Below, one piece after another: positions 504 through 58,445 of a stretch of DNA of 64,000 bases (positions are counted from its first letter, which is position 1; every line of letters begins with the position of its first letter). Source of the DNA: a phage; assembly GCA_031520405.1 (NCBI GenBank), contig GCA_031520405.1_4842.1; one strand, 5' to 3'. A program made the translations under genes and the position numbers. The notes beneath the pieces were generated by a model. That model was not told the origin of the DNA and ran no database searches. It was given only the letters and a program-made list of their open reading frames with translations.

Positions 504-714
504 ATAACTTGATGTCGCGTCCGGAAGGATCTGAATTTGCTAGAATATAACCATCAACCACGTTCTTTTCGTCCCACCATTCAATAAAATCATTATCCTT
601 TTCGCCTTTGATAAGACCCACAATGTTATATGAACCATCGGCGATTTTAGCATCTACACAGATAATTCTCACACGCCTTCCGTCACGAGTTTCTTTAATA
701 TCTTCAACCTTCAT
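502..714 (-). CDS. hypothetical protein (70 aa)
   Basis: reverse ORF in gap between gp13-like and gp14-like genes; GGA SD-like upstream; stop abuts the terminator hairpin. Confidence 0.4.
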   Translation of the reverse strand: MKVEDIKETRDGRRVRIICVDAKIADGSYNIVGLIKGEKDNDFIEWWDEKNVVDGYILANSDPSGRDIKL

Positions 715-775
715 TTATCAATTCCTCAAAAGAATTAATGATTGACTAAATACCTTCAAAATTGAGGGTAAAGTC

Positions 776-1417
776 ATGGCTACTTCAAAATATTTCAACT
801 ATACAGCACATCAAGGTACTCAAAAATTAATTGATGACTTGGTGGTCGAGATGATACAATTGCGTGGGATTGACGTCAAGTATATCCCACGTTCTATTGT
901 TGAAAAATACCCAATTTTAAACGAGGCCGAACACAAATTCGACCAAGCGTTTGACATCGAAGTGTATATGCAGGATTATCAAGGCTTCAACACACAGATG
1001 TGGGAAAAGTTCGGCGGTATCCAATTACAAGATGAAGTGACCTTCACTATTGCTCGTCGTCGTTTTTCAGAAGTTATTGGTAATGGTCCAGGCCTTGAAC
1101 AAATGCCTCAAGAAGGTGATTTGATATATCTGCCTATGGCTAACAAAATATTTAAAGTGAATAACCCGAACAACGATGAAGAATTCATGCAATTTGGGAA
1201 ATGGTACACATATTCCCTACCATGTACGTTGTTCCAATACGGTAACGAAGATTTCGATACAGGTGTATCTGAAATAGACGATATCGATAAACGGTTGCAG
1301 GATCTGGAAGGAGACGGTGTGTACAAAGACGCCAGCCTGCAAACGGATAACCAATTTGCGGACGAAATAGAGAAAGATCTTTCGCCCAATAAAATGAAGA
1401 TAGACTTCGGGGAATAA
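776..1417 (+). CDS. neck protein gp14-like
   Basis: synteny (between gp13-like and gp15-like); GAGGG RBS; ACTAAATAC motif 23 nt upstream. Confidence 0.5.
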   Translation: MATSKYFNYTAHQGTQKLIDDLVVEMIQLRGIDVKYIPRSIVEKYPILNEAEHKFDQAFDIEVYMQDYQGFNTQMWEKFGGIQLQDEVTFTIARRRFSEVIGNGPGLEQMPQEGDLIYLPMANKIFKVNNPNNDEEFMQFGKWYTYSLPCTLFQYGNEDFDTGVSEIDDIDKRLQDLEGDGVYKDASLQTDNQFADEIEKDLSPNKMKIDFGE

Positions 1418-1419
1418 TC

Positions 1420-2118
1420 ATGGCCAGACCATTTGAAAAATATTTCTACCATGAATCGTTGTTGAAATATATCCATGTTTTCAACGCTATCATGTCGGAT
1501 TTAAAAGTCAAAACCGAACGTGGCTTGATGGAAATCCCGCTGCATATGGCCATTGGCCGCCGTAATGACCTCAACAGGAACGTGCCAGCCAATATGCTGC
1601 CATTTGCAACAATGTCCTTTGGTCAGTTCGAAATCAATAAACAGGTGACCAAGTCGTATCATAATCAGATATCGACTGCAACTGCGCGGTCCAAACAACG
1701 AATTCCGATCATTATAGATTTTGAATATAACATCAGAACGAAGAAACTGGTCGAAATGCTACAGGTGTTGGAACAAATTTATTCTGTGTTCACTCCTTCT
1801 GTTGACTGTCAGATAAAGGACAACGACACTTTATCTCAAGATCAGAACGTGAAGATAATGTTGGTAAATCACACGATTTCTGACAACTGGGAAGGAGACG
1901 CAACAGAATCACCACACATAGATTGTTCATTCAATTTTCAATTACATGGTCACATCTATGGAGAAGATTATTGGGTTGATGATGGTTCGGGCGGTGGGGA
2001 TCCAAACGTCATCAAAGAGATAATTATTGAAATGTCTAATGATTTGAACATGCCATGGTCGGAACTTCCTGAATGGTTCCGAGTTGATAAAGACGGCATA
2101 CATCATCCGGAGGATTGA
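1420..2118 (+). CDS. tail sheath stabilizer/tail completion protein gp15-like
   Basis: synteny and loose similarity to T4 gp15; start abuts gp14 stop. Confidence 0.55.
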   Translation: MARPFEKYFYHESLLKYIHVFNAIMSDLKVKTERGLMEIPLHMAIGRRNDLNRNVPANMLPFATMSFGQFEINKQVTKSYHNQISTATARSKQRIPIIIDFEYNIRTKKLVEMLQVLEQIYSVFTPSVDCQIKDNDTLSQDQNVKIMLVNHTISDNWEGDATESPHIDCSFNFQLHGHIYGEDYWVDDGSGGGDPNVIKEIIIEMSNDLNMPWSELPEWFRVDKDGIHHPED

Positions 2119-2120
2119 TC

Positions 2121-2801
2121 ATGAGCAATATGTCAGAAAGGTTACTCGCCACACTTGATGCGGTGACTGCCCGAGACGAAGTTGGGAAGGAGGCAATGGA
2201 GGCTGTCGCCCCTCGTCCAGGTATTGACTTCGATGAAAATACAGGTGAATGGTTTGGTGAACGTCCGGAAGGGTATCAGCCGATTCCTGAACCGCCTTCA
2301 TTGGAGGATATTGCTTCCAAGGAATCCAAAGTACCTGAGTTTGCGGACACTGATGCTACAACGGATTACAAACGGATACGCGACACAACATATGCCATGC
2401 AAGAAGCCACAATGTTCATGATGGGACAAGCCGCTAAATTGGCTGCATCCACAGAAGCTCCGCGAGCATTTTCTGTTTTCCGTGAATTGGGTGAACTCAT
2501 GCGAGGTCTGAATAAAGACTTGATGGAAAACCAGAAAACCATCAAGGCGGTAACAGGTGATAAAGAACCACCTGTTGATGACACGACAGTGGATGTTACA
2601 ACTTCACCAGACGGAACAACAACAGTATCGGTTGGGAAAAAGGCGCGATCTTCTCGCGATTTATTGAAGACGATCGAAGATGCACGCCGCCGCGCTGAAG
2701 AAAGAGCACAAGCAAAGGCCGCACAACAACCAGAAGATGAAATCATTGATGGTGAAACAGTTGATGTGAAGGAAGAAGACGATGGCGTATCAGAAGCGTG
2801 A
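2121..2801 (+). CDS. terminase small subunit (gp16-like)
   Basis: ATG 2121 preceded by GGAGG (track start 2115 is TTG); central region resembles T4 gp16; overlaps start of large terminase. Confidence 0.6.
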   Translation: MSNMSERLLATLDAVTARDEVGKEAMEAVAPRPGIDFDENTGEWFGERPEGYQPIPEPPSLEDIASKESKVPEFADTDATTDYKRIRDTTYAMQEATMFMMGQAAKLAASTEAPRAFSVFRELGELMRGLNKDLMENQKTIKAVTGDKEPPVDDTTVDVTTSPDGTTTVSVGKKARSSRDLLKTIEDARRRAEERAQAKAAQQPEDEIIDGETVDVKEEDDGVSEA

Positions 2802-4992
2802 TATAGAATATGCCCCAATTAAAACGGGGTTCAAAATAGACGATGTGAAATTGCGTATGGACCAAACGTTCATGCGCAAACCTTCTGTGCGTGCTCCTCG
2901 AGTCGAGTTAATGCTGACAGATGAACAAGAAGACGAATTCGTTGAATGTTCTATGGATGCACACTACTTCGCCGCCAACTATTACAAGATAACCACGATC
3001 GATAAGGGCTTTATCCTTTTCGATATGCATGATTATCAGAAGCAGTTGTTCCACGACTTTCAGGACTATCGATTTAATGCGGTCGTCCAGGCTCGTCAGT
3101 CCGGAAAATGTGTAAAAGGCGACACGCTTGTCACAGTTTACGATACTCTCAGCCAAGAGGAGTTGCTCCTGACTATAGGGGAGCTTCACAGCCGCTTCGA
3201 GGACGTCAACCACGCTGTGCCGCTGAATACCATTGGCAACCATGACAAGTTCGTGGACAGCCGCTTCGGCAAACGTTACTTTGTACAATCCGATAGTGGC
3301 TGGGTTCCGGTTATCGCAGCGCATAAGACGAAGAAATATGCGGAATTCGTTATTGTCACCGTTACCGGAAGGCGAATTAACGTGGCTGATGAACATATGT
3401 TCTTCACTCCGGACATGAAGGAGATATTTGCCAAAGACCTGAATGCTGGGTCATACATCATGACGACAGAAGGTCCAGAAGAAATCCGTGAGATTTGGCA
3501 GACTGGTGAATATCACCATATGTACGATCTTCAGGTCAAATCTAGTGATCAACGTTATTACACGAATGGCTTTCTCAGTCATAACACGACCGTGGTGGCG
3601 GCGTTTCTTCTTTGGTATGCGATGTTCCATTCTGATAAGGAAATCGCAGTACTGGCAAACAAAGAGAAACAAGCGATAGAAATTCTTGACCGTATCAGAA
3701 AAGCATACCAAGACCTTCCATTCTTCCTTCAGCAGGGTTGTGAGAAGTTTGGTTCTACCCTGATAGAGTTTGAGAATGGTTCTAAGATATACGCTTATGC
3801 CACGTCTTCGGACTCCATCCGTGGTCGTTCTGTATCGCTCTTGTACGTTGACGAAGTCGCGTTTATCGAAAACGACTTTGAATTTTGGGAATCAACTTTC
3901 CCAGCCATTGCATCTGCCGATACATCACGCTGTATTTTGACAAGTACTCCGAAAGGCCAGCGAGGGTTGTTCTATGATATTGTCACCAAAGCAGATCCGC
4001 GCCATCCACAATACAACGACTTCCACCTAACTGAAGTCCCATGGTATAAGGTTCCGGCATATACCAAAGATCCAGATTGGGAAACCAAACAACGTGCCCG
4101 TCTGGGGGATGCTCGTTTCGATCAAGAATTTGGCATTAAGTTCCGTGGTTCCGTGGGTTCATTGATTCCGGCCAAATGCTTAGATAAAATGACGTCCAAG
4201 TTGTATCGGGAACCTAATGAATTCACCAAGATTTATAAGGAATACGACCCACAACGTCTCTACTTTGGGATTGCGGACACTGGGAAGGGGGTGGAAGGAG
4301 ATTATTCCGTCTTAACAATTCTGGATATAACTGAATATCCGCATGTCATAGCAGCCAAGTACAGGAATAATACGATACCTCCTATGATGTATGCATACAC
4401 GATAGCTGATATGTGCACCGAATACGGGGAATGTCCTGTCCTTGTTGAAACAAACAACGACGTCGGCGGTCAGGTTATTACAATTCTTTATCAAGAGATA
4501 GAATATCCAGAAATCATATTCACATCAACAGATAACAAAGGGACGGGGAAACGGATTGGTGGACGTAAACCGGAACCTGGTATCAATACCAACAGAAAAG
4601 TCCGATCTATCGGTTGTGCTAACCTGAAAGCGCTCATTGAGAAAGAAATGTTGGTGATAGAAGACCAGGACACGATAGATGAACTCAGTACATTTGTGTT
4701 CAAAGGCGCTCGGTATGAAGCCGATGACGGTTGTCACGATGACTGTGTCATGCCGTTGGTCTTATATTCATGGGCAGTAAAACAAGAATGGTTCAGTGAT
4801 TTGACATCTACAAGTATTTCTCAGGACATGAGAAACCGAATGTCTTCAACTGAATCTCAGCAGGTATTCCCATTTGGTGGTTTAGTCGTTGGAGACACCC
4901 CATCCGAAACTGAGCATTTGCCTGGTTTCGGGGGTATTCAAGTTTTCAACGAAATGTCAGGGATGACCATGGATGAGTGGGTTAAGAATTGA
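2782..4992 (+). CDS. terminase large subunit (gp17-like), intein-containing
   Basis: strong similarity to T4 gp17 around TTVVAAFL...YVDEVAF...TSTP; Walker A RQSGK|T interrupted by 159-aa insertion. Confidence 0.9.
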   Translation: MAYQKRDIEYAPIKTGFKIDDVKLRMDQTFMRKPSVRAPRVELMLTDEQEDEFVECSMDAHYFAANYYKITTIDKGFILFDMHDYQKQLFHDFQDYRFNAVVQARQSGKCVKGDTLVTVYDTLSQEELLLTIGELHSRFEDVNHAVPLNTIGNHDKFVDSRFGKRYFVQSDSGWVPVIAAHKTKKYAEFVIVTVTGRRINVADEHMFFTPDMKEIFAKDLNAGSYIMTTEGPEEIREIWQTGEYHHMYDLQVKSSDQRYYTNGFLSHNTTVVAAFLLWYAMFHSDKEIAVLANKEKQAIEILDRIRKAYQDLPFFLQQGCEKFGSTLIEFENGSKIYAYATSSDSIRGRSVSLLYVDEVAFIENDFEFWESTFPAIASADTSRCILTSTPKGQRGLFYDIVTKADPRHPQYNDFHLTEVPWYKVPAYTKDPDWETKQRARLGDARFDQEFGIKFRGSVGSLIPAKCLDKMTSKLYREPNEFTKIYKEYDPQRLYFGIADTGKGVEGDYSVLTILDITEYPHVIAAKYRNNTIPPMMYAYTIADMCTEYGECPVLVETNNDVGGQVITILYQEIEYPEIIFTSTDNKGTGKRIGGRKPEPGINTNRKVRSIGCANLKALIEKEMLVIEDQDTIDELSTFVFKGARYEADDGCHDDCVMPLVLYSWAVKQEWFSDLTSTSISQDMRNRMSSTESQQVFPFGGLVVGDTPSETEHLPGFGGIQVFNEMSGMTMDEWVKN
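3109..3585 (+). mobile_element. mini-intein (Hint domain only, no homing endonuclease domain) in terminase P-loop
   Basis: insert begins Cys (CVKGDTLV), ends His-Asn (FLSHN) followed by Thr +1; excision restores RQSGKT Walker A matching T4 SRQLGKT. Confidence 0.75.
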
Positions 4993-4993
4993 T

Positions 4994-5002
4994 CACTAAA
5001 TA
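4994..5002 (+). promoter_or_regulatory. putative late-promoter-like motif CACTAAATA upstream of tail sheath gene
   Basis: ACTAAATA-type box ~43 nt upstream of ATG 5045; same motif recurs upstream of other late genes. Confidence 0.3.
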
Positions 5003-5044
5003 TCTTTCAAATTGAGCGAAACTCTACCGAGAAGGAATGATATT

Positions 5045-6940
5045 ATGGCAACTCAAAGCTTCAGCGTTGCGCCGTCCGTTCAGTGGACTGAGCGTGATGC
5101 CACGCTTCAGACGTCCCCGTCCGTTGTTGTTCAGGGCGCGACCGTCGGCAAATTTCAATGGGGTGAAGTTGAACTTCCAGTGCTGGTGACTGGTGGTGAG
5201 ACAGGTTTGGTGAAGAAATTCTTCAAACCCAACGACAGTACTGCGACCGATTTTCTTGTAATCGCGGACTTTTTGTCTTACAGCTCTATGGCATGGGTGA
5301 CCCGTGTTGTTGGTCCTCTGGCCAAGAACTCTGTTACCAAAGGTCAGACAGCGATTGCGATCAAAAACAAACTGGATTTTGAAACAGCAAGTCCTTCGGC
5401 GTCCATCACTTGGACTGGTCGTTATCCAGGTTCCCTGGGTAATGATATTGCTATCAATGTTTGTGATGCTGCTGGATTCTCAACTTGGGAATTCCGTAAT
5501 AACTTTGCATACGCACCTCAGTCTGGTGAATTCCATGTAGTTGTCGTAGACAAAGTTGGTCGCATTACCGACTCTGCTGGCGCGGTCGGTCAGGTTGACC
5601 GTATCTCCGTTTCTGGTACGGCTACTGCTGCTGGCACCATCAGTGTGGCAGGTGAAGATATCGCATATCTGGATACTGATACTCCAGCCGATTTGGCAAC
5701 CAAAATCGGTACAGCACTAACTTCCCTGACAAGTGTTTATTCTTCTGTTGTCGTGAAGTCCAACACTGTCATCGTGACCCATAAAGCTATTGGTCCCCAG
5801 ACAGTTACTGCTATTGTTCCAGATGATAAGGGGCTGACTGCAACCGCCGTGATTACCACTGTTGGCGCATCTGGTTCTATTATCGAAAAATACGAACTCA
5901 TGCAGAACACACAGGGTTCCAAAAAGTCCGATGGCGCGAATGCGTACTTCAAAGATGTCATCAATGATACATCAAATTGGGTGTACACCTTCGCTACCGC
6001 TCTGGCCGCAGGTGTTGTTGAATTAGAAGGCGGCGTAGACGATTATAACATCAACCGCGTGGCAGCTATCCAAGTCTTGAACAATGCTGAAGCATATGAT
6101 GCGAAGCCAGTATTTGCGTACTGTGAAGAACTGATTGAGCAACAAGCATTGATCGACTTATCTACTGAGCGAAAAGATACGGTATCTTTCGTATCCCCGC
6201 TCCGTGATACGGTTGTTGGCAACCGTGGTCGTGAAATGGATGATGTCGTTGCTTGGCGTGAAAGCCTTGTTCGCGACTCTTCTTATTTCTTCATGGATGA
6301 TAACTGGGCATATGTGTACGACAAGTACAACGACAAAATGCGTTGGATTCCGGCTTGTGGTGGCACCGCAGGTGTTTGGGCGCGAAGCATTGAAATCGCG
6401 GGTATCTACAAATCTCCGGCGTTCCACAACCGTGGTAAATACAACAACTATAATCGAATGGCGTGGTCTGCTTCTTCTGATGAACGTGCTGTGTTGTACC
6501 GCAATCAGATCAACAGCATCGTAACCTTCTCCAATGAAGGCATCGTCCTGTATGGTGACAAAACTGGCCTGACCCGCCCGTCGGCGTTTGACCGCATCAA
6601 CGTTCGTGGTCTGTTCATCATGGCTGAGCAGAACATCGCCGCAATCGCCAAATACTATCTTGGTGAGAACAATGACGCGTTTACACGTGGTCTGTTCAGC
6701 AATGCGGTTCGTCCATATATTCGCCAGCTGGCAAATATGGGCGCGATTTACGATGGTAAAGTCAAATGTGATGAAGACAACAACACTGCTGATATCATTG
6801 CGGCAAACCAAATGGTTGCTGGTATCTGGTTGAAGCCTGAGTACAGCATAAATTGGGTGTATCTTGACTTTGCTGCAGTTCGACCAGATATGGAGTTCAG
6901 CGAAATCGAATCCGGTGGCGGCATCGTTGCTGCTTCATAA
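5045..6940 (+). CDS. tail sheath protein (gp18-like)
   Basis: GKFQWG and C-terminal GDKTG...FDRINVR similarity to T4 gp18; ATG 5045 with GAAGGAA RBS (track start 5012 is TTG). Confidence 0.9.
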   Translation: MATQSFSVAPSVQWTERDATLQTSPSVVVQGATVGKFQWGEVELPVLVTGGETGLVKKFFKPNDSTATDFLVIADFLSYSSMAWVTRVVGPLAKNSVTKGQTAIAIKNKLDFETASPSASITWTGRYPGSLGNDIAINVCDAAGFSTWEFRNNFAYAPQSGEFHVVVVDKVGRITDSAGAVGQVDRISVSGTATAAGTISVAGEDIAYLDTDTPADLATKIGTALTSLTSVYSSVVVKSNTVIVTHKAIGPQTVTAIVPDDKGLTATAVITTVGASGSIIEKYELMQNTQGSKKSDGANAYFKDVINDTSNWVYTFATALAAGVVELEGGVDDYNINRVAAIQVLNNAEAYDAKPVFAYCEELIEQQALIDLSTERKDTVSFVSPLRDTVVGNRGREMDDVVAWRESLVRDSSYFFMDDNWAYVYDKYNDKMRWIPACGGTAGVWARSIEIAGIYKSPAFHNRGKYNNYNRMAWSASSDERAVLYRNQINSIVTFSNEGIVLYGDKTGLTRPSAFDRINVRGLFIMAEQNIAAIAKYYLGENNDAFTRGLFSNAVRPYIRQLANMGAIYDGKVKCDEDNNTADIIAANQMVAGIWLKPEYSINWVYLDFAAVRPDMEFSEIESGGGIVAAS

Positions 6941-6946
6941 ATGACC

Positions 6947-6973
6947 AACCCCGCTTCGGCGGGGTTTTCCTTT
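6947..6973 (+). terminator. rho-independent terminator
   Basis: AACCCCGC-TTCG-GCGGGGTT hairpin followed by T-run. Confidence 0.7.
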
Positions 6974-6996
6974 GTCTTATTGATTTGAGTTATTGA

Positions 6997-7455
6997 ATGA
7001 TATACGCATACAAAATTGAAACGATAACTAATGGAAAGGTCTACATCGGTGTGACCAATGACCCACAACGAAGATATGATCAGCATTTTGCGAATGCTTT
7101 TCATCATGGAGTCCAAAGTGAATTGTATGATGCCATGCGTAAGTATGGAACATCTGGATTTACTTTCGTTGTAATTGCTCAGACCGATGAAGTCCATAAA
7201 TGGGAATTAGAGAAGCAACTCATCTCTCAATATAATTCTTATGAGATGGGTTACAACATGAATAAAGGCGGTAATGATGGAAGTCATATGCTGGGTAAAA
7301 CTGCAGCAAAATTGACATCCACAGGTGAACACATTGGTCTTGTTTCTCTCATAGATCCCCGTTGGGAATTGTGTGAAATCGAACCCGTTTTAAGCAATGT
7401 TGACCACGGATTTGATTTTTCTTCCATGAAGATTAAAAGATTGACGACTAATTAG
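6997..7455 (+). CDS. GIY-YIG endonuclease (putative free-standing homing endonuclease)
   Basis: N-terminal IYAYKIE...GKVYIGVT...RRYDQH, later Glu and Asn: GIY-YIG catalytic core; inserted between gp18 and gp19 after terminator. Confidence 0.65.
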   Translation: MIYAYKIETITNGKVYIGVTNDPQRRYDQHFANAFHHGVQSELYDAMRKYGTSGFTFVVIAQTDEVHKWELEKQLISQYNSYEMGYNMNKGGNDGSHMLGKTAAKLTSTGEHIGLVSLIDPRWELCEIEPVLSNVDHGFDFSSMKIKRLTTN

Positions 7456-7485
7456 AATTGTGTACTCTTATTTGGAGATATAAAA

Positions 7486-8019
7486 ATGGCGACAGTCAAT
7501 GAGTTTCGCGCAGCCATGTCACGAGGGGGCGGCGTACAACGCCAACACCGCTGGCGTGTGACTGTAAACTTTCCTTCTTTTGTTGCTGGTTCCGACACAA
7601 TTCGTGACGTGTCCTTGCTGGCTGTAACCACCAACACCCCAACAGGTCAGCTGGGCGAAATTCTGGTGCCCTGGGGTGGTCGTGAACTTCCGTTCCCAGG
7701 GGATCGTCGTTTCGAAGCGCTTCCTGTGACGTTCATTAACGTGGTGAACAACGCTCCATACAATGCTTTTGAAGTGTGGCAGCAATTCATCAACGGTAGT
7801 GAAAACAACCGCGCCAGCGCGAATCCAGATGATTATTTCCGTGATATCATCATGGAACTTCTGGACGCGAATGACAACGTGACTAAGACATGGACTTTAC
7901 AGGGCGGCTGGCCTCAAAACCTCGGCCAACTGGAACTCGATATGTCGGCAATGGACTCTTACACACAGTTCACTGTCGACTTGCGTTATTTCCAAGCCGT
8001 TTCTGACAAGTCATTGTAA
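7486..8019 (+). CDS. tail tube protein (gp19-like)
   Basis: C-terminal GGWPQNLGQLELD...FTVDLRYFQ resembles T4 gp19 GLWPTNVGELQLDW...EVTLALDYWE; GGAG RBS. Confidence 0.8.
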   Translation: MATVNEFRAAMSRGGGVQRQHRWRVTVNFPSFVAGSDTIRDVSLLAVTTNTPTGQLGEILVPWGGRELPFPGDRRFEALPVTFINVVNNAPYNAFEVWQQFINGSENNRASANPDDYFRDIIMELLDANDNVTKTWTLQGGWPQNLGQLELDMSAMDSYTQFTVDLRYFQAVSDKSL

Positions 8020-8086
8020 TGTCCTCGGTGCTGGGGGAATGTTATTCCCCCTCACTAATTACAAGAAAACGTTGAGGACTTAGATC

Positions 8087-9769
8087 ATGGCTGGATACGG
8101 CAGAGGGTTCTTCGGTTTGTTTGGTGGTGGCGGTTTAGTCAATGCCAAAGTCGACACCGATAAGTTAGCCCAAAAACAAGATGAATTGTTGCTCACCAAG
8201 GCGACAGTTGTTGCTCTGGACGATGCTCAAGACGGTTCTATAATCCTTCAGGGCGGTGCAAACACCTACAACTATGTTGGCGTTGAGAGTGAACTTCTCA
8301 GCGTTAAAACAGTTGTGGAAGAATATCAGTCCATGGCCCAGCAGCCAGAAATACGCAAAGCTGTGGACATCATTGTTAATGACGTTGTCACATGTGAGGA
8401 AGACGAAACTCCGGTGACAGTCAATCTTGACAAAGTTGATGGTATTTCTGAATCAGTCAAAGAATCTATCACCGAATGTTTCAAAGAAGTGATTCATTTG
8501 ATGGATTTTGAAAATACGGCGTATCAAAAGATTCGGAAATGGTATGTAGATGGTCGACAAGCGTATCATGTGATTGTTGACCCAACGAATAAGAAGGGCG
8601 GGATCAAGAAATTGGTCATGCTGGATTCTCGTTGTATTCGTCCTGTGTACATCGTTGAAAAGGCAATGCGTGAAGGTGGTATAGAAGCGATCGAATCTGT
8701 AACGCTGAAATACTATTACAATCCGAATTATAATCGAAACCAATTCACTGGTCAATCAGGTACTTCTCAAAACTTCCAACCTTCACAACAAGAACTCGTG
8801 TTTGATGACGAAAGTATCGTTTATATCGATAGTGGTGAAGAACCATTGGCTAACGGTATTGTCCCAGGGCTTTTAAATCCTGCAATCCGCCCGTTGAACA
8901 ACTTGGTTACGACTGAAGACGCAACAGTAATTTATGCCATCACTCGCGCCCCTGAGAAACGCGCATTCTATCTTGACGTCGGTACTCTCGGCAAGAAATC
9001 TGCTGAAGAATACATGACCATGATGATGGGTAAATTCAAAAACCGCAACGCATATGACCGCACCACTGGTAAGATAACAGGTAATGCCCATCTTATGGGT
9101 ATTGCAGAGGATTATTGGTTGCCGCGCCGCGAAGGTCAGAATGCTACAGAGATTGCGACTGTTGGGGGTGGGAATCAATTGGGCGAAATGGATCACGTGA
9201 ACTATTTCCGTGAAAAACTCTATGATGCTCTAATGATCCCTAAGAGCCGCCTCCAAGAGGAAGGATCTATTAACATTGGGGGTTCCAACCTCGCGGAGAT
9301 TACACAGGAAGAGCTGCGTTTCAGCAAGTTCTGTGCTGGGTTACGTCGTCGTTACTCCCATTTCTTTATGGAGTTTTTACGTCGCCAATTAATTTTGAAA
9401 GGCGTGACTGACGAAAAAGATTGGAATGAAAAAATCAAGCCGTTTATTAAGTTTGAATTCACTTCTGATAGCTATATTCGTGAGCAACAAGAAAACGCCA
9501 TATTAAATGATCGCCTGGCTTCTCTGAACACTGTTGAGCCTTTTGTTGGTTCTATATTCTCCATAGACTACGTCATGAGAAATGTATTGCGTATGTCTGA
9601 TGAAGAAGTTAAAGAACAACAAACGAAGATCGCGGAAGAGAAGAAGAAAGGTCTCTATCCGAAGGTTCAAGCAGATGAAACTGGCAATTATAGCGGTTCA
9701 GATGTTAGTCCGTTGAAGTTTAAACCTGAGACTATCCCATTCTCCGGTTCAACAGACGATAGTATTTAA
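8087..9769 (+). CDS. portal vertex protein (gp20-like)
   Basis: similarity to T4 gp20 (ITRAPE...YLD, EDYWLPRREG, NYFR); GAGGA RBS. Confidence 0.9.
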   Translation: MAGYGRGFFGLFGGGGLVNAKVDTDKLAQKQDELLLTKATVVALDDAQDGSIILQGGANTYNYVGVESELLSVKTVVEEYQSMAQQPEIRKAVDIIVNDVVTCEEDETPVTVNLDKVDGISESVKESITECFKEVIHLMDFENTAYQKIRKWYVDGRQAYHVIVDPTNKKGGIKKLVMLDSRCIRPVYIVEKAMREGGIEAIESVTLKYYYNPNYNRNQFTGQSGTSQNFQPSQQELVFDDESIVYIDSGEEPLANGIVPGLLNPAIRPLNNLVTTEDATVIYAITRAPEKRAFYLDVGTLGKKSAEEYMTMMMGKFKNRNAYDRTTGKITGNAHLMGIAEDYWLPRREGQNATEIATVGGGNQLGEMDHVNYFREKLYDALMIPKSRLQEEGSINIGGSNLAEITQEELRFSKFCAGLRRRYSHFFMEFLRRQLILKGVTDEKDWNEKIKPFIKFEFTSDSYIREQQENAILNDRLASLNTVEPFVGSIFSIDYVMRNVLRMSDEEVKEQQTKIAEEKKKGLYPKVQADETGNYSGSDVSPLKFKPETIPFSGSTDDSI

Positions 9770-9810
9770 AGTTCAACTAAATATAGAAAATTAATTCGGA
9801 GATCAAAATC

Positions 9811-9981
9811 ATGAGCGCAATTGATATCGTTCGTGCAGTAATTGACGGTGACACTGAAACTGCTGTTGCAGAATGCAACATGGAACTTGATGCACGTAGT
9901 CAAGAACTATTAAACCAAGGCACAGCATATGTTCTGGATTCTATCGCAGCTGATATGAATTCAAACAACAACGGCCAGTAA
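9811..9981 (+). CDS. small protein (56 aa), possible prohead core protein
   Basis: not in ORF track (<60 aa); ATG with GGAG RBS; position between portal and protease as gp67/68 in T4; AACTAAATAT motif upstream. Confidence 0.4.
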   Translation: MSAIDIVRAVIDGDTETAVAECNMELDARSQELLNQGTAYVLDSIAADMNSNNNGQ

Positions 9982-9989
9982 GGAGATGC

Positions 9990-10307
9990 ATGATGGAAAT
10001 CACAGAGATCGCCACGTTCGCTGATTTCCTGGCCTCTCGTATGGACGAGCAGCGAGTCATCGATAAAGTGAACGCTCGTGGTAAACGCCGCCGCCGTCTG
10101 AAATGTGCCCCTGGGTTCAAATTGTCGGCTGATGGTTCACGTTGTGAAGTCATGGATGCCAGCGAACGTCGTGTTCGCAAGATCGGCAACCGCAAAGCCC
10201 TCCGCTCTAAAAAGCGTATGGGAATGGGCTATCAACGTAAAATCGAGCGCCGCAAGAAAAAGGCTATGAAGTTCCGCAAAATGATGGGACTGAGTAAGAA
10301 CAAGTAA
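9990..10307 (+). CDS. highly basic small protein, possible prohead core/internal protein
   Basis: Arg/Lys-rich 105 aa; GGAG RBS; location between portal and prohead protease. Confidence 0.5.
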   Translation: MMEITEIATFADFLASRMDEQRVIDKVNARGKRRRRLKCAPGFKLSADGSRCEVMDASERRVRKIGNRKALRSKKRMGMGYQRKIERRKKKAMKFRKMMGLSKNK

Positions 10308-10314
10308 GGAGTTT

Positions 10315-10983
10315 ATGATGAAACTGTTGCGTGAGATCACAGCGATAGGGAAGGATCTTCTAATCGGTGAGGCCACAACCTCAACTGGTGGGAAGGCCAT
10401 GTTCATCGAAGGTCCGTTTGTGATGTGTAACCAAGTCAACCGTAACGGGCGTAACTATGATCTGCAGAAAGTGGGTATTCCTGCTGTCGAAGCATACGAC
10501 AAAGAGTATATCCAAGATCGTCGCGCAATCGGTGAAGTCACACATCCTGACTATCCTTTCCCTAATCTGGTGGAAGCAGCGCTCAAAACCGAATCCCTTC
10601 GCTGGGAAGGCACTAATGCCATCGGTCGGGCGCGAATTTTAAATACACCAAAAGGCCAAATCATACGTGCATTGGCTGAAGCAGACTTCAATCTGGCCGT
10701 GTCTACACGTGGCCTGGGTGAGACCAAGTCAGTAAACGGTTATGATGACGTTCAGCCTGGCTTTATGCTCACCGCTGTTGATGCAGTCGACCGTCCTTCT
10801 GGACAAGTTTGTTATGTTAAGGCTGTGAGTGAATCTGTTGAATGGCAGCTTGATGAGGCTTCGGGTATTTGGATGCCTCGTGATGTTAAAGGGAAAGTTG
10901 TAGACCAGTTGGTGAAAACCAATATCCAGGTTGAAGACGATTTCCTGCGCCGCCTTGATGCAGCATTGAATCATCTGGGCTGA
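10315..10983 (+). CDS. prohead core protease (gp21-like)
   Basis: similarity to T4 gp21 (GEVTHP, LAVSTRGLGE). Confidence 0.85.
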   Translation: MMKLLREITAIGKDLLIGEATTSTGGKAMFIEGPFVMCNQVNRNGRNYDLQKVGIPAVEAYDKEYIQDRRAIGEVTHPDYPFPNLVEAALKTESLRWEGTNAIGRARILNTPKGQIIRALAEADFNLAVSTRGLGETKSVNGYDDVQPGFMLTAVDAVDRPSGQVCYVKAVSESVEWQLDEASGIWMPRDVKGKVVDQLVKTNIQVEDDFLRRLDAALNHLG

Positions 10984-10992
10984 AATTCAGCT

Positions 10993-11002
10993 CACTAAAT
11001 AC
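10993..11002 (+). promoter_or_regulatory. putative late-promoter-like motif CACTAAATAC upstream of scaffold gene
   Basis: motif ~28 nt upstream of ATG 11030. Confidence 0.3.
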
Positions 11003-11029
11003 TGAAAAATCGTTCAGAAGGAAACTATC

Positions 11030-11869: not shown

Positions 11870-11960
11870 TTTTAGCAGCCACAGCCCTCGAAAGGGGGCT
11901 TGATTTTGAACTACTAAGTAATTTCAACTTAACTGAATATCAATGTAAGGAACGAGCATC

Positions 11961-15564: not shown

Positions 15565-15583
15565 ATTTAAAATTTATTCAATA

Positions 15584-15618
15584 AACGGGGTTTACTTCTT
15601 CAATAAACCCCGTATACT
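15584..15618 (+). promoter_or_regulatory. early-promoter cassette: hairpin overlapping -35 GTTTAC, 17-nt spacer, -10 TATACT
   Basis: ACGGGGTTTA...TAAACCCCGT hairpin; GTTTAC(15590-15595)-N17-TATACT(15613-15618); conserved leader to ATG 15667. Confidence 0.45.
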
Positions 15619-15666
15619 TCATTCCATAAGCAGCACAACACTGACTCTGAAATGAAGGACTACACC

Positions 15667-16382: not shown

Positions 16383-16805
16383 ATGAAGAAGTATATCGTT
16401 CTTATAACGGGTTCCCGTTCTATAACTGAGCGGGATAAAATATTTGCCAAATTAGATGAACTCTTAATCCCTCACGAGATAGAGACGTTTATTGAAGGTG
16501 AAGCAGTAGGTGTGGATCTGATATCCCGTGATTGGTGTGAAATCAATTATGTGCATATTACACCAATGCCGATTCCTCAAAATTACCATACGTTATATGG
16601 GAAAGGTGCGGGCAATCAACGTAACAAAGATATGCTGGACAAGGCTCTAACATTGGCGAAGCAAAAAGATCTTGAGGTCTTTGGAATTGCATTATGGGAT
16701 GGTTCGTCTACTGGGACGCAAGACATGATCAAGCGCATGAAGAAAGCGGGAATAAATGTCAATATCACTCTCATGGGCAAACCCAAAACCAAACGATTGT
16801 TATAA
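16383..16805 (+). CDS. SLOG-like (DprA/LOG Rossmann-like, DUF2493-type) protein
   Basis: IVLITGSRS strand, GEAVGVDLISRDW, WDGSSTGTQDMI: motif pattern typical of SLOG nucleotide-binding domains. Confidence 0.45.
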   Translation: MKKYIVLITGSRSITERDKIFAKLDELLIPHEIETFIEGEAVGVDLISRDWCEINYVHITPMPIPQNYHTLYGKGAGNQRNKDMLDKALTLAKQKDLEVFGIALWDGSSTGTQDMIKRMKKAGINVNITLMGKPKTKRLL

Positions 16806-16808
16806 ATA
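16801..16808 (+). promoter_or_regulatory. T4-type late promoter box TATAAATA
   Basis: only perfect TATAAATA in the window; 28 nt upstream of ATG 16836. Confidence 0.3.
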
Positions 16809-17006: not shown

Positions 17007-17036
17007 TTAAATACCCCCAAAATTGGGGGTATTTTT

Positions 17037-19441: not shown

Positions 19442-20187
19442 TGGTTTCTCTACAGGCTTTGCGCAAACTTAATGACTTTGAAAATCGTCATCATACATTT
19501 CAGCAATATTCCTTGCCGTTTAAGGAACTGACTTGCGTAACTACCGAAAATGGTCGTCACTATGTTTCTCCCACTGGAGTCAAACTGACTTCAGTGACGA
19601 CCATGTTAGGGCGTACTGGTGACCACACATGGTTAGAAGCCTGGCGGGACAAGTTGGGGCATGAAGCTGCTGATATAGAAACGCATCGTTGCGCAGACCG
19701 TGGGGAAAAACTTCATTTGGCTTGTGAGTTGTATCTCAAAAACAGACCAATGAAAGAAGTTCTGGAAGCTGCAGGGGAATACGTGTTTATGTTCAAACAG
19801 GTTTTCCCCTACCTTAACAAAATGAGCAAGATATATGCACAAGAGATTCCATTATATAGCGAAGTCCTGGGTCTTGCTGGTCGTGTTGACCTCATCGGGG
19901 TTTACGAAGGAATTCCAAGCATAATCGATTTCAAAACATCCAACACCCTAAAAACTCGAAGCATGATAGAAGATTATAGTATTCAATTGTGTCTATACTC
20001 AGTCATGTTTCAACAAATGTTTAATGTCAAGATAGAGCGTTTAATCAATATTATATCCAACGAAAATGCCCTTGTTCCCACCATAATCGAATTCGATCGC
20101 AAAGACGTTATTTCTAAAATGTTTGACCGTGTCCGTCTGTATCACAAAATGGACAAAGAACAGAAAGGAATCTGGGCGGATCGCTAA
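19441..20187 (+). CDS. PD-(D/E)xK family nuclease-like protein
   Basis: GRVDLIG...IIDFKTS matches D...(D/E)xK core; ATG overlaps upstream stop (TAATG). Confidence 0.5.
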   Translation: MVSLQALRKLNDFENRHHTFQQYSLPFKELTCVTTENGRHYVSPTGVKLTSVTTMLGRTGDHTWLEAWRDKLGHEAADIETHRCADRGEKLHLACELYLKNRPMKEVLEAAGEYVFMFKQVFPYLNKMSKIYAQEIPLYSEVLGLAGRVDLIGVYEGIPSIIDFKTSNTLKTRSMIEDYSIQLCLYSVMFQQMFNVKIERLINIISNENALVPTIIEFDRKDVISKMFDRVRLYHKMDKEQKGIWADR

Positions 20188-20216
20188 ATACTCCATAATA
20201 TTGGGGGAAATTAGTG

Positions 20217-21716: not shown

Positions 21717-21721
21717 CTATT

Positions 21722-22087: not shown

Positions 22088-22425
22088 ATGTATTTCTCGC
22101 GTGTTAGCAAACTTGGCTACATAATAATGTCATGCTCTGTTTAGACCAAATAAAATATTTTAATTGTTGAATAAAAATCGCTTTCTTGTTGAACAATCCG
22201 TGCGTAATATACGAGTTGTGAGCTTTGCGAGCAACGAGTATTATCACGAGCGAAGCGAGTAGACTGATAAAGAAAGGTTTTATTAAAACAGAATATTATA
22301 AATGCCGTCAGGCATTTATTTATCGCGCGTAGGGCAATTTATCACTTGTTCTATAACTACAAACACGCGATACTAATTTGCGTCAAATATGACTTGAACC
22401 CCACTATATTTTGAGGATACAACTA

Positions 22426-23094
22426 ATGCAAGAGATCACTCTCTCCGAACGCACTTTACAACTGCTGGCTAACTTTGAAACCATCTGCCCCTCTATCGTT
22501 CTGGCACCTGGTAAAAAGTTGCGCACTGTTAACGATTCCAGTACAGTTATCGCTATTGCCGACATTGACGAAGACTTCCCGTTCGAATTCCCGATTCTGG
22601 ATCTGACCAAATTGCTGGCAATCCAGCGTCTGCCGAGTTTTAAAGGCGGTAAAATTGAAATGTCGGAAGACCACATTTTGCTGAAAGGTGAAAACTCCCA
22701 ACTGCAATTCTGGCGTTCCGCTAAAGAACTGACTGTCGTTCCAGCAGACAGCATCGATCTTCCGTCTGTAGAATTTGAAGCAACAGTCACTCCTGAAAAA
22801 ATGAAAGAGCTGACTCGCGCCTGTTCTACTCTGGGCCACAAAACTGTACGCCTGGTGGCCAGCGGCGGTAAAACTCGTCTGGTGGGCACGACCACTACTA
22901 TCGACAATTCCAACGATTACACTGTTGAGTTGGGTGAAACAACTCTGGGTGATTTTGCTATGCCTGTTGATGTGGTCAACCTGAAAATGATCGAAGGCAA
23001 CTATGTGATCCGCGCCTGTGCCGAAATGCAACTGGTTAACTTCCAATCCGCAGATGGCACCATCAACTATTACGTCGGCATGCAGCTGGATTAA
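22426..23094 (+). CDS. sliding clamp (gp45-like)
   Basis: length, position before clamp loader, and loose similarity to T4 gp45; ATG 22426 (track start is alternative codon). Confidence 0.8.
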   Translation: MQEITLSERTLQLLANFETICPSIVLAPGKKLRTVNDSSTVIAIADIDEDFPFEFPILDLTKLLAIQRLPSFKGGKIEMSEDHILLKGENSQLQFWRSAKELTVVPADSIDLPSVEFEATVTPEKMKELTRACSTLGHKTVRLVASGGKTRLVGTTTTIDNSNDYTVELGETTLGDFAMPVDVVNLKMIEGNYVIRACAEMQLVNFQSADGTINYYVGMQLD

Positions 23095-24165: not shown

Positions 24166-24588
24166 ATGGCCGCTCCGTCACTGTTCGATTACCTCGGTGC
24201 GTTGAATAGCACCAAAGAGAATCTGTTGATGACCGAAGACCCCGAAATCAGAAAGGCATTTGATCCTTTCATGACTCGGCGCGGCCTTGCTCAGAGTAAA
24301 GACACGCTTGTGGTTGCCGAACAAATGAACCGCTTCCATGCCATTACTCCTTGGATGCAATGGAACCTGGCGTTTCATAGCATTCCGGCAAAACGTCGCT
24401 ATGACAAGTGGTCTAAGAAGGGAGCTATGGATCCTGATGTGAAATTGATTTCTGAGTATTATTACATCAGTCCTGAAAAGGCTTCAGAATATGTTCGATT
24501 CCTGCCGAAAGAAGTCCTGGCTGAAATCAAGGCGAAGGTCGAACGTTCCAACAGCAACGAAAAAGCCAAACCGCGCAAGGCTAAGTAA
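24166..24588 (+). CDS. clamp loader small subunit (gp62-like)
   Basis: synteny directly after gp44-like gene and before regA. Confidence 0.6.
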   Translation: MAAPSLFDYLGALNSTKENLLMTEDPEIRKAFDPFMTRRGLAQSKDTLVVAEQMNRFHAITPWMQWNLAFHSIPAKRRYDKWSKKGAMDPDVKLISEYYYISPEKASEYVRFLPKEVLAEIKAKVERSNSNEKAKPRKAK

Positions 24589-27648: not shown

Positions 27649-27744
27649 ACTTTTCAATAAATCTTTTCAGCGTATATTGACCTCACTTTAACGACGCGCC
27701 CCGATAAGGGCGCTCACTTTGAACTGAAACAGGAAGACTATACC

Positions 27745-36780: not shown

Positions 36781-36859
36781 ATACGATAGTTTATTGAAAC
36801 CCTTTACTCAACATGGTGACAGCCCTATCATTTTATCCAATGAAATAAGGAGAATCACC

Positions 36860-44591: not shown

Positions 44592-45314
44592 ATGGGTATT
44601 CCATTCGTTTACTGTTTGGAAAGTAAGGATGGTCATTTGTATTTTGGTTCCAAGATTGGTGAAGAGTCTGATCCAAAGCAGCTCATGGAAACATATTTCA
44701 CTTCATCAAAATATGTAAAAGATTTGATGAAATCAAAAGGAAATGATTATTTTCAGGTAGTGGGTATAGAAATATTCCCCAACCAACCTGAAGAAGCGTT
44801 TTGGAAAGAACAACAATTGATAGAGTCCTTTTACGGCAACCCCATGCTACTAAACAAACATTATCAAACTGCTGGAACTAAACCGTGGACTCAATTAGGT
44901 AGAAAGGGGAATCAACAGTATTTGTTTGGCAATGGGCACCTCCGCGCTGGCAAAAACAATCCTATGTATGGCAAACAAGGAGCCATGAAAGGTATTACAG
45001 GGAAAGACCATCCTGCCTATGGCGCAGATCGTTCAGGTTCCAAAAATGGCATGTTTGGAAAATATGGAGAATTACATCACCATTATGGAACTCCTCCATG
45101 GGAAGTTCCAATAAGCAAGAAATTGGGAACTTCTAAACATTGGTTGGATGCAGAAGAAATACGTTTGGAATGGATTGCTGGCGCAAGGCAATGCGACTTG
45201 TCAAGAAAATATGGAATTAGCATAAAGACTATTGAAACTATGGTCGGCAAATTCCGTTCCGGTTGGATACCTTCACAAGACCCTCAGTGGATTAATTTTA
45301 AAGGTGGTGTATAA
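44592..45314 (+). CDS. Seg-like GIY-YIG homing endonuclease with NUMOD3-like repeats and C-terminal HTH
   Basis: FVYCLESKDGHLYFGSK GIY-YIG core; repeated G-x-N-P-x-Y-G-K linker motifs; HTH-like segment near C-terminus. Confidence 0.6.
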   Translation: MGIPFVYCLESKDGHLYFGSKIGEESDPKQLMETYFTSSKYVKDLMKSKGNDYFQVVGIEIFPNQPEEAFWKEQQLIESFYGNPMLLNKHYQTAGTKPWTQLGRKGNQQYLFGNGHLRAGKNNPMYGKQGAMKGITGKDHPAYGADRSGSKNGMFGKYGELHHHYGTPPWEVPISKKLGTSKHWLDAEEIRLEWIAGARQCDLSRKYGISIKTIETMVGKFRSGWIPSQDPQWINFKGGV

Positions 45315-46108
45315 TGTGCGCTATGAATTATGTGGACAGGGGTGATAATGTCACCAAATATTTCACTGACGAAGATAATGACCGTGTTGTTGGAATATTG
45401 AGAGATTGGATTCCGGCTCGCAAAAAGGCTTTGGCCGAAGGAACACCCCTACCAAGAATCCCCAATTATGTGGCCATGAATGTTCAGATGATTATTAAGA
45501 ACATGAGTATGCGCTACAACTATCGTGATTATCCATACCGCGAAGACATGGTCAGTGAGGCCGTTGTCAACATCCTTCGTTACCTCCATACATTTGACGT
45601 CAGTCATATCGGCAAGAAAGGAAAAATCAATTTCTTCTCTTGGGTAACGATGTGCGCCGATCGTTCATTCGCCAAGAAACTCACCAGTGAAGAAGAACAC
45701 AATTATATCAAGTTGCGTTCATTTGAAGAAGCAGGTGGTTTCGCTGCATTATCAGATGACCCAGACTTCCAGCAACAGACATTCGTAGACAGCACTGGTA
45801 TAACAATGGACTTTCGTGAGCGTATCGGAAATTTTGAAACTAAGAAAGAAGCCCAGCGCGAAAAGGAACGCCAAAAGCAAATCGCCATCAAAGAAGAGGA
45901 AAAGAATAAGAAAATTCCTCGCGGTATACTTCAATGTCTCACAAAGAGTGAAAATACCATTACCGCCGACGCCGAAGATAATTCAGACTATGACTTCGGC
46001 TCTACTCAATTCAATCTGGAAGACGAAATATGTTCTATGGAACCAGATTGGGAAGAAGCAAAGAAACGAGCATTAGAACGGGAGCAACAAAATAATGGCG
46101 ATTGCTAA
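45314..46108 (+). CDS. late sigma factor gp55-like, with extended acidic C-terminus
   Basis: VAMNVQMIIKNMSMRYNYRDYPYREDMVSEAVVNILRYLHTFD parallels T4 gp55 core; adjacent to gp47 as in T4. Confidence 0.6.
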   Translation: MCAMNYVDRGDNVTKYFTDEDNDRVVGILRDWIPARKKALAEGTPLPRIPNYVAMNVQMIIKNMSMRYNYRDYPYREDMVSEAVVNILRYLHTFDVSHIGKKGKINFFSWVTMCADRSFAKKLTSEEEHNYIKLRSFEEAGGFAALSDDPDFQQQTFVDSTGITMDFRERIGNFETKKEAQREKERQKQIAIKEEEKNKKIPRGILQCLTKSENTITADAEDNSDYDFGSTQFNLEDEICSMEPDWEEAKKRALEREQQNNGDC

Positions 46109-50317: not shown

Positions 50318-50351
50318 AAGGGCACTAAATATCACGTGCCCTTTATCTTTT
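50318..50351 (+). terminator. hairpin terminator-like element
   Basis: AGGGCAC...GTGCCCT stem with large loop, then T-rich run. Confidence 0.4.
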
Positions 50352-50409: not shown

Positions 50410-51027
50410 ATGACGATGACAACGTTGAAGGCCATGGCCTTGTCTGTGACCTTTACCATTGCCAGCGGGAGTGTGCACGCTTCCCAAAGTACCACCCAAT
50501 GTGATTACGAATTTTCTGATCAGCAACTTTCAACTATGGCCACTGCCTATCACATAGGCAAACAGCAAGACCTTGGTTTCACCCTCGCCGCGATATCATG
50601 GAGGGAAAGCCGCGCCGGAGAAGATGTTGTATCCATGCGGAATAACCTGAAATCGGCTAACATGGGGGCATTTCAAAATCGCGTCCAAACCGTCGGGAAA
50701 CGGGAGGGATGCAAAACACAGAAGTGTTACGCCAACGTGGCGATTAAATTGCTGGTCAATCAAGAGTACGCAGCCAATGCAGCCCTTGATGAAATGAATT
50801 TCTGGCTAGAATATCATAACCAAAACATCCGCAAATCGCTCTCCTCTTACAATGCCGGTTTCAGTCGTAACCAAAAATCCAATTCATACGCTGCTGATGT
50901 CGTGAAGAAGGCTAAATATCTTCAACGATGTGTGTCTTTCAAAGGCATGGCAATAAACCCAAAGGTCGACCCAGGAGTGATCGCCATGAATAAGCGCACG
51001 ATTGAGAAACTCAAGAGGACCAGATAA
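50410..51027 (+). CDS. secreted lytic transglycosylase (SLT)-like protein
   Basis: signal peptide ...SGSVHA|SQ; AISWRESRAG...ANMGAFQ resembles SLT catalytic-Glu motif; AAGGA RBS. Confidence 0.45.
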   Translation: MTMTTLKAMALSVTFTIASGSVHASQSTTQCDYEFSDQQLSTMATAYHIGKQQDLGFTLAAISWRESRAGEDVVSMRNNLKSANMGAFQNRVQTVGKREGCKTQKCYANVAIKLLVNQEYAANAALDEMNFWLEYHNQNIRKSLSSYNAGFSRNQKSNSYAADVVKKAKYLQRCVSFKGMAINPKVDPGVIAMNKRTIEKLKRTR

Positions 51028-52166: not shown

Positions 52167-52213
52167 CGCTAATTAAGGGAAACCGCACCGATTTTATAAT
52201 CAGGAGAATTACA

Positions 52214-54196: not shown

Positions 54197-54268
54197 AACT
54201 AGCTGGGCTTGAACAGAACAAAGCCCCTTCGGGGGCTAATTACATCTAAATCCCCGAGGAGAGATCCA

Positions 54269-55095: not shown

Positions 55096-55126
55096 ATCCC
55101 CCTAAATACAGGGGGATTTTCTTTTT
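55096..55126 (+). terminator. rho-independent terminator
   Basis: ATCCCCC-TAAATAC-AGGGGGAT hairpin followed by T-run. Confidence 0.65.
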
Positions 55127-58376: not shown

Positions 58377-58445
58377 TCAACACTAAATCCTCAAGTTCGA
58401 CTTTCACTTTAAATACCTTTGCATACATTGCGGAGGTATTTTCTT

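Follow-up and report, generated by a model that had tools for sequence, protein, structure and literature searches.

The window analysed here, a 64,000-nucleotide stretch of phage DNA, belongs to a Kuttervirus (family Ackermannviridae, formerly 'ViI-like'); it shares approximately 98% identity over 10 kb with Escherichia phage CBA120 and many Salmonella phages, and its gp55 protein and the gp55 of Salmonella phage rabagast are 100% identical. By transferring the CBA120 annotation (BLAST and gene order), 87 genes were mapped, nearly all of them on the plus strand and in the order gp13/gp14, head and tail cluster, uvsY/uvsW, gp45/44/62, RNase H, gp55, gp47/46, primase, endolysin and nrdAB. Two small minus-strand genes (502-714 and 21722-22087) were left out of this gene model, by which the intergenic fraction is slightly overstated and the enrichment test described below is conservative.

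Several features of this map differ from the annotation of CBA120. The minus-strand ORF at 502-714 encodes 70 aa and matches PHROG 4466 (E=4e-43); it is unannotated in CBA120, an equally long minus-strand ORF is annotated at the corresponding position of AG3, and its presence in the window turns the gp14 promoter region into a short divergent spacer. The 709 nt between uvsW and gp45 (21717-22425) are also unannotated in CBA120 and harbor the second minus-strand ORF (21722-22087; 121 aa), which matches PHROG 4255 (E=3.6e-62). The RNase H ORF (44445-45314) comprises 289 aa in the window compared to the 142-aa product annotated in CBA120, and since ORF 44054-44581 overlaps it, the RNase H start is ambiguous. 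Coordinate arithmetic indicated that CBA120 orf136 (162 nt) and its flanks are apparently missing from the window at 36781-36859, between orf137 and orf135, an apparent deletion of about 270 nt. Further, the Kuttervirus DNA of the window shares 97-98% identity with the sequences deposited as Enterococcus phage Efm 3-10 (OR844942) and Pseudomonas phage Pa-sanjiao (MN871475); probably, either the host labels of these records are wrong or the samples were contaminated.

A short box with the sequence CTAAATA, or a close variant of it, recurs upstream of many genes in the window (Table 1). All 8 copies of CTAAATA are on the gene-sense strand, and 7 of them lie 23-78 nt upstream of a start codon. 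A first-pass annotation had proposed this box as a non-canonical late promoter. The copies that it described before gp14, gp18, the small gene at 9811 (orf192), gp22 and uvsW were found where it had placed them, at 23, 42, 27, 28 and 26 nt from the respective start codons, as were the ACTAATTA variants before gp19 (7448-7454) and portal (8055-8061). Its statement that the perfect T4-type sequence TATAAATA occurs once in the window (16801-16808) also held. Sites absent from its list were CTAAATA at 50325, 55102 and 50912, CTAATTA at 52169 and 54236, and CTAAGTA at 11914 and 24581. The copy at 50912, the only CTAAATA fully within a gene, could be either a chance occurrence or an internal promoter. 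CTAACTA, a candidate fourth variant with weaker evidence, is present twice in the window (36295, and 21713-21719 over the uvsW stop codon), in both cases in the sense orientation and in intergenic DNA or at a gene end.

Table 1. Box copies and late-factor genes in the window (distances are to the start codon of the downstream gene).
Feature	Position	Strand	Context
CTAAATA	746..752	+	23 nt before gp14 (neck); heads contiguous run gp14-gp15-gp16-gp17
CTAAATA	4996..5002	+	42 nt before gp18 (tail sheath), ATG at 5045
CTAATTA	7448..7454	+	31 nt before gp19 (tail tube); overlaps stop codon of SegD homing endonuclease
CTAATTA	8055..8061	+	25 nt before gp20 (portal); directly 3' of hairpin
CTAAATA	9777..9783	+	27 nt before orf192; heads orf192-gp68-gp21 (prohead core, protease)
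CTAAATA	10995..11001	+	28 nt before gp22 (scaffold)
CTAAGTA	11914..11920	+	40 nt before gp23 (major capsid protein); 3' of terminator hairpin
TATAAATA	16801..16808	+	27 nt before orf173; sole perfect T4-type copy
TTAAATA	17007-17013	+	23 nt before orf171
CTAAATA	20184..20190	+	26 nt before uvsW; overlaps stop codon of exonuclease gene
gp45 homologue	22426..23094	+	sliding clamp; maps to CBA120 orf163 'gp45 sliding clamp protein'
CTAAGTA	24581..24587	+	30 nt before orf160 (RegA-like translation repressor); inside gp62 3' end
CTAACTA	36295..36301	+	29 nt before orf137; candidate fourth variant
gp55 homologue	45314..46108	+	264 aa
CTAAATA	50325..50331	+	78 nt before vs.1-like orf114; apex of 12-bp terminator-like hairpin; also in CBA120
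CTAAATA	50912..50918	+	inside vs.1-like orf114, 108 nt before orf113
CTAATTA	52169..52175	+	38 nt before orf111; 3' of terminator
CTAATTA	54236..54242	+	26 nt before orf109; directly 3' of hairpin
CTAAATA	55102..55108	+	31 nt before orf108; apex of terminator hairpin, stem AATCCCCCT/AGGGGGATT then T-run
CACTAAATCC	58381..58390	+	one mismatch to motif; not conserved in relatives
TTTAAATA	58408..58415	+	30 nt before endolysin (PHROG 'endolysin'), ATG at 58446

The endolysin gene was the one case in which the box had been misplaced. The sequence at 58381-58390, to which the first-pass annotation had assigned it, reads CACTAAATCC and falls outside the conserved block, and it is probably not the endolysin promoter. 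The conserved element is TTTAAATA at 58408-58415, invariant in five phages of four genera, which we regard as the candidate promoter of this gene.

With regard to the genes downstream of the less obvious sites, the product of orf160 matched PHROG 242 'translation repressor' (E=3e-53) and the C-terminal part of orf111 resembles an internal head protein. CBA120 carries CTAAATA upstream of its orf109 (L002 13268-13274), a site matched to the CTAATTA of the window by gene order rather than by alignment. Between gp18 and gp19, a SegD-type homing endonuclease gene occupies 6997-7455 and its stop codon lies inside the palindromic box CTAATTAG; the box before gp19 is retained in relatives that are devoid of this endonuclease.

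We then compared the occurrence of the box with random expectation. Over the whole window, neither CTAAATA (8 copies vs. 6.1 expected) nor CTAANTA (17 vs. 19 expected) was enriched, and hence the signal resides in placement and not in abundance. Sixteen of the 17 CTAANTA copies are gene-sense, the sole minus-strand match being the mirror image of the palindrome CTAATTAG, and 13 of the 14 sense copies of CTAA[A/T/G]TA are located 23-78 nt upstream of a start codon. Intergenic DNA makes up 7.3% of the window, with a GC content of 0.386 compared to 0.447; however, 7 of the 8 CTAAATA copies lie in it or at its edge, as against 0.81 expected under a first-order Markov model of intergenic DNA (P=2e-5). 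For the three variants CTAA[A/T/G]TA taken together, 11 intergenic copies were found where 1.9 were expected (P=4.5e-6), and no antisense copies were detected in the intergenic DNA of the window. Approximately 15,700 heptamers were also ranked by their enrichment in the sense windows from -70 to -12 upstream of the 87 genes, relative to all remaining sequence on the two strands. The top rank was shared by CTAAATA and CACTAAA, which overlaps it (6 of 8 copies, P=4.8e-8, Bonferroni-corrected 7.5e-4); CTAATTA ranked sixth, and the remaining top words corresponded to terminator stems.

Within genes, the box was found 4 times on the two strands, compared to 11.8 expected after synonymous-codon shuffling within each gene (P=0.005), and three of these four copies are accounted for by boxes located at the 3' ends of genes (that at 7448, counted together with its palindromic mirror at 7449, and that at 24581). 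This depletion means that the motif is not equally frequent in coding regions; equal frequency there was what the first-pass annotation had named as grounds for refuting its own proposal.

To determine the conservation of the box, the 80-90 nt that precede each of seven structural genes and uvsW were aligned with the corresponding regions of Taipeivirus, Agtrevirus, Limestonevirus, Miltonvirus and Vibrio phage D493. The box was retained before gp14, gp18, gp19, gp20, orf192, gp22, gp23 and uvsW in the comparison with these five other lineages while the flanks diverged, most clearly in Miltonvirus and Vibrio phage D493, in which little besides the box aligned. The gp18 box was kept in all six lineages compared, and the gp19 box was also kept in AG3, which is devoid of SegD and carries unrelated DNA upstream.

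The identity of the fifth base varied among orthologous sites. The gp14 box reads CTAAATA in Agtrevirus and Limestonevirus and CTAAGTA in Miltonvirus, and the gp22 box is CTAAATA in five lineages and CTAAGTA in Vibrio phage D493. The gp19 and portal boxes, CTAATTA here as in a total of four lineages, are CTAAATA in Miltonvirus and, in the case of portal, also in Vibrio phage D493. Before gp23, CTAAGTA is present in four genera and CTAAATA in Miltonvirus, and before orf192 the columns C-T-A-A-x-T-A are invariant in six lineages, with CTAAGTA in Agtrevirus and Limestonevirus. These exchanges of A, G and T at orthologous sites indicate a functional consensus C-T-A-A-N-T-A. Conservation is confounded at three sites: the uvsW box, invariant in four lineages, overlaps a stop codon, and the whole leaders of gp18 and endolysin are conserved in four genera. 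The latter leaders (5003-5044 and 58390-58445) are near-identical across the four genera and more conserved than the adjoining coding DNA, which suggests that they have an extra function beyond that of a promoter box, e.g., translational control or an RNA structure.

The analysis was also extended to the whole CBA120 genome, whose copies were classified against the annotation of its own record. There, 18 of 25 CTAAATA copies are sense-oriented and lie 23-78 nt upstream of a start codon; for CTAA[A/G/T]TA, 25 of 40 are in the sense orientation 14-80 nt upstream of a start, where approximately 4.5% would be expected (binomial P ~4e-24). Box orientation followed the gene in the case of minus-strand genes. 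The CBA120 boxes beyond the region covered by the window precede gp48 (baseplate), gp6 (baseplate wedge), orf213/orf212/orf211 (tailspike/tail-fibre), orf209, a RuvC-like resolvase gene and a few genes of unknown function; across this genome, the genes that follow a box are mostly virion genes. The leader 3' of the CTAAATA of the RuvC-like gene (CBA120 44205-44270, minus strand) contains, by eye, a hairpin (ACCCATAAC...GTTATGGGT) with a T-run ending at the start codon, which would represent a terminator-like structure within a 5' leader.

CTAANTA was absent before the late genes gp3, gp4, gp2, gp5 and gp26, where A- or T-first variants or nothing obvious were found instead; the consensus is therefore looser than one heptamer. 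In CBA120, A-first boxes of the (T)ATAAATA type precede further baseplate genes, with TATAAATA before gp26 and the tube-like orf081 and CATAAATA before gp5, and T-first boxes precede gp2 and gp4. Thus, the sites constitute a family of boxes in which C is preferred at the first position rather than one rigid heptamer.

The surroundings of the box were inspected in a set of 19 sites, numbered relative to the predicted transcription start. A was present at -13 in 12 of the 19 and C or G at -14 in 14, and an A-rich patch covered the predicted -1 to +3 positions (A at +1 in 11 and at +2 in 14 sites). No -35 element was detected, positions -27 to -15 being compositionally flat in the 19 sites. Regarding the C-rich 3' extension (cCcc), C was the commonest base at -5, -4 and -2, yet it was present in just 7-9 of the 19 sites (9 at -5); some copies do carry the C-rich tail, such as the CBA120 tailspike sites CTAAATACCCC. 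In a scan of positions 600-12100 with a sigma70-like consensus, none of the 31 matches placed its -10 hexamer on a box, and the box ends in A rather than in the T of a TATAAT-like -10.

Sigma70-like elements were observed elsewhere. A near-identical cassette of about 75 nt, composed of a hairpin terminator followed by TTTACT-N17-TATTAT, is present at 34678-34798 and 35030-35156, and modules of the form 'TTCAATAA ... TATAAT' were identified in early-region spacers at 15565-15651, 27649-27744, 41029-41111, 51666-51769 and 57445-57643. By sequence, both look like the published early-type motif TTCAAT[N14]TATAAT.

Boxes directly 3' of a terminator hairpin were found before portal, gp23, orf111 and orf109. 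At two sites only, 50325 (-18.6 kcal/mol, z -6.1) and 55102 (-14.7 kcal/mol, z -3.2), the box occupies the hairpin apex. Being part of an intrinsic terminator is thus not a general property of the box, as the other copies lie 3' of hairpins or have no hairpin. A transcript starting a few bases 3' of an apex box would begin in the 3' arm of the hairpin and would consequently escape that terminator.

The window encodes a candidate factor for reading the box. Its gp55 homologue (264 aa, compared to 185 aa in T4) matched PHROG 234 'late sigma transcription factor' (E=1.6e-53) over residues 13-208, beyond which an acidic C-terminal tail of about 56 aa exceeds the end of the family profile. Similarity to T4 gp55 itself was low (BLASTP E=0.004, ~18% identity); a sequence search of the PDB returned nothing relevant, T4 gp55 included, and Pfam gave no match. 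In T4, the sigma-region-2-like domain of gp55 flips A-12, A-9 and A-8 into pockets formed by N13, L54, R57, F86, H95, Y97 and T99 (PMC7892883). According to our alignment, the window protein retains R57, F86, T99 and probably N13 and differs from T4 by L54 to M, H95 to F and Y97 to W (Trp110) and by a 5-residue insertion before the segment equivalent to NPHAY.

The first-pass annotation had linked the extended C-terminus of gp55 to an altered promoter specificity. The extension is real, but it does not constitute evidence for altered specificity: the C-terminal region of T4 gp55, which carries the clamp-binding motif, is dispensable for promoter recognition and opening and for basal transcription (PMC7892883), and Vibrio Ackermannviridae with the same box have a 218-aa gp55 without the tail. 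Two pocket changes were likewise considered. The Y97-to-W exchange was ruled out as the cause of the preference for C at -12, since Vibrio phages D493 and 207E48.1 keep CTAAATA/CTAAGTA yet have Tyr, and H95-to-F is not an Ackermannviridae-specific change, as Phe is also common in cyanophage and other gp55 proteins. The segment N-[F/A]-F-S-[W/Y], common to Ackermannviridae gp55, compared to N-P-[H/F]-[A/G]-[Y/F] elsewhere, is a lead only.

Taken together, these results make it very likely that the CTAANTA box is the core of a gp55-dependent late promoter in this phage. This reading is supported by the orientation and position of the box, its upstream enrichment and in-gene depletion, its cross-genus conservation and the T4-late-gene homologues that follow it, as well as by the location of sigma70 -10 matches off the boxes in the structural cluster, the presence of gp55 and gp45, and the agreement with predictions for the family and for Aeromonas phage Aeh1. 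In T4, uvsW is itself a late gene. The box before uvsW, confirmed here, is no anomaly, given its conservation in four lineages and its annotation as 'putative late promoter' in LIMEstone1. Weighing against a late promoter, the genes downstream of several boxes have no known function or are not evidently late (regA-like, the regulator-like orf108, vs.1-like).

In T4, gp45 is an activator of late transcription. By analogy, we propose that the gp55 homologue would replace the host sigma factor on the core RNA polymerase and recognise the box, assisted by gp33 (annotated as CBA120 orf084, outside the window) and by the sliding clamp gp45 loaded on replicating DNA. The box would act as a -10-like element without a -35 partner, with the consensus (A)CTAA-N-TA, equivalent to positions -12 to -6 of T4 TATAAATA. 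Transcription would start approximately 5-8 nt 3' of the box, in the A-rich patch, generating leaders of about 15-35 nt that carry the ribosome-binding site. The boxes stand at the head of transcription units that encode the neck proteins and terminase, the sheath, the tube, the portal, the prohead core proteins and protease, the scaffold and the capsid, and they also precede uvsW, the regA-like gene and several genes of unknown function. Often they lie directly 3' of the terminator that closes the upstream unit, or in its apex. Binding of gp55, the start site and late timing at the boxes are predictions, late timing being derived from homology to T4.

Other explanations were weighed against a gp55-dependent promoter. 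It is quite improbable that the box is read by a different factor, i.e., the host sigma70, with TAAATA as a weak -10, or another phage factor in a middle or other promoter class. TAAATA does loosely resemble a -10 hexamer and boxes also precede non-structural genes (uvsW, regA-like, orf108); however, the box ends in A where sigma70 needs T, it is accompanied by neither a -35 element nor a TG extension (-27 to -15 being flat), and none of the 31 sigma70 consensus matches in 600-12100 coincided with a box. Moreover, a separate sigma70-like class (TTCAAT...TATAAT) is present in early regions (PMC7283392), and the box is one position off the T4 gp55 site in a phage that encodes the gp55-gp33-gp45 set.

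We consider it very improbable that the box acts in RNA, as a processing site or translational operator in intercistronic transcripts, rather than as a DNA promoter. Its strand specificity, its location in leaders near ribosome-binding sites, the conservation of the whole gp18 and endolysin leaders and the presence of a RegA-like repressor would fit such a role. In contrast, many boxes lie 3' of strong terminators (gp23, orf111, portal, orf109) or in a divergent spacer (CBA120 gp48), where little upstream RNA is expected and yet the downstream genes, including that of the major capsid protein, need a promoter; further, the distance to the start codon ranges from 23 to 78 nt, and the likeness to gp55-type promoters would have to be a coincidence. 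As for a chance by-product of A+T-rich intergenic DNA, the window totals at expectation (8 vs. 6.1 and 17 vs. 19) and the lower intergenic GC content (0.386 vs. 0.447) would be in line with it. This origin is, however, effectively refuted by the heptamer test, the intergenic counts and the alignments: a composition-matched expectation of 0.8 CTAAATA copies contrasts with the 7 found, and one of 1.9 with the 11 of the three variants, intergenic antisense copies amount to 0, the heptamer ties for the top rank, and the box is conserved across genera within otherwise diverged DNA.

Within the framework of a gp55-dependent promoter, a more specific and, in our opinion, unlikely idea is that the promoter code of Ackermannviridae gp55 is shifted: C would take the place of A at -12, every base would be accepted at -8, and the template would be replicated DNA with hydroxymethyl-dU or 5-NeOmdU at the invariant thymine positions -11 and -7. 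If so, the bare heptamer would suffice as a promoter, its use would be coupled to replication and modification, and it would be strong enough to be eliminated from ORFs and to function inside the loop of the preceding terminator.

Since the motif has already been predicted for the ViI-like/Ackermannviridae family and for Aeh1, the late-promoter box is not new and its discovery here adds little. Our own additions are small: the degenerate fifth position, the mix of C-, A- and T-first boxes, the in-gene avoidance, the terminator-apex boxes and the corrected endolysin site, together with the rejection of the C-terminal-extension and Y97W ideas. A known late promoter would nevertheless allow the late transcription units of Kuttervirus and other Ackermannviridae to be delimited and payload genes to be placed under late control in phages that are widely used in biocontrol, reporter-phage and therapy work. 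The refinements (free fifth base, C/A/T at the first position, in-gene avoidance and apex boxes) may serve as templates for testing how gp55-type sigma factors read promoters.

The motifs CTAAATAcCcc and TTCAAT[N14]TATAAT reportedly originate from the 'Viunalikevirus' genus paper of Adriaenssens and colleagues (Arch Virol, 2012). Both are listed as the two regulatory motifs of Ackermannviridae ('Viunalikevirus') (PMC7283392). Before that, Kutter et al. (2011) had described the late promoter of the ViI family as not yet identified (PMC3184105), and Anany et al. (2011) had scanned AG3 for TATAAATA with up to one mismatch (PMC3121705). In the LIMEstone paper, 33 late promoters were described (PMC3296691), and in the record of LIMEstone1, a Dickeya phage (HE600015 / NC_019925), TAAATA within CTAAATA is annotated as the -10 of a 'putative late promoter' before gp18, gp22 and uvsW. 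In the literature searched, no start-site, timing, gp55-dependence or transcriptome studies of Ackermannviridae were found; the words promoter, transcription, sigma and regulatory are all absent from a 2024 family review, and no statement on a free fifth base or on A- or T-first boxes was found in the family literature examined.

The box described here shares with CTAAATAcCcc and the LIMEstone1 sites the family, the heptamer and the orthologous positions upstream of morphogenesis genes. It differs in that the C-rich tail is weak in the window set, the fifth base is free (A, T, G and perhaps C) and A- and T-first boxes occur as well.

Compared to T4 TATAAATA, both are short A/T-rich -10-like elements without a -35, upstream of virion and lysis genes, with 6 of 7 core positions identical (xTAAATA), in phages encoding gp55, gp33 and gp45 homologues. 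The exact T4 consensus is nevertheless confined to one copy in the window: most sites have C in place of the T4 A-12, which T4 gp55 flips into a deep pocket, and position -8 (the fifth base), pocketed in T4, is variable here. The template also differs from that of T4, as the DNA of ViI and CBA120 carries the hypermodified thymidine 5-NeOmdU, which is made on newly replicated hmdU DNA (PMC5889632); the two invariant T's of the box would therefore be modified to some extent on late templates.

A counterpart outside the family is Aeromonas phage Aeh1, for which Nolan et al. (2006) predicted CTAAATA, with C at -12, as the late promoter (PMC1524935). The gp55 gene of Aeh1 was not located in our scans (NC_005260 48-78 kb; PHROG scans of ten candidate ORFs). 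The heptamer in both phages is identical, including the C at -12, and that of Aeh1 likewise came from a motif search in the regions preceding orthologues of T4 late genes and was ascribed to a divergent gp55 (PMC1524935); unlike the phage studied here, Aeh1 belongs to another family (Straboviridae, Cinqassovirus).
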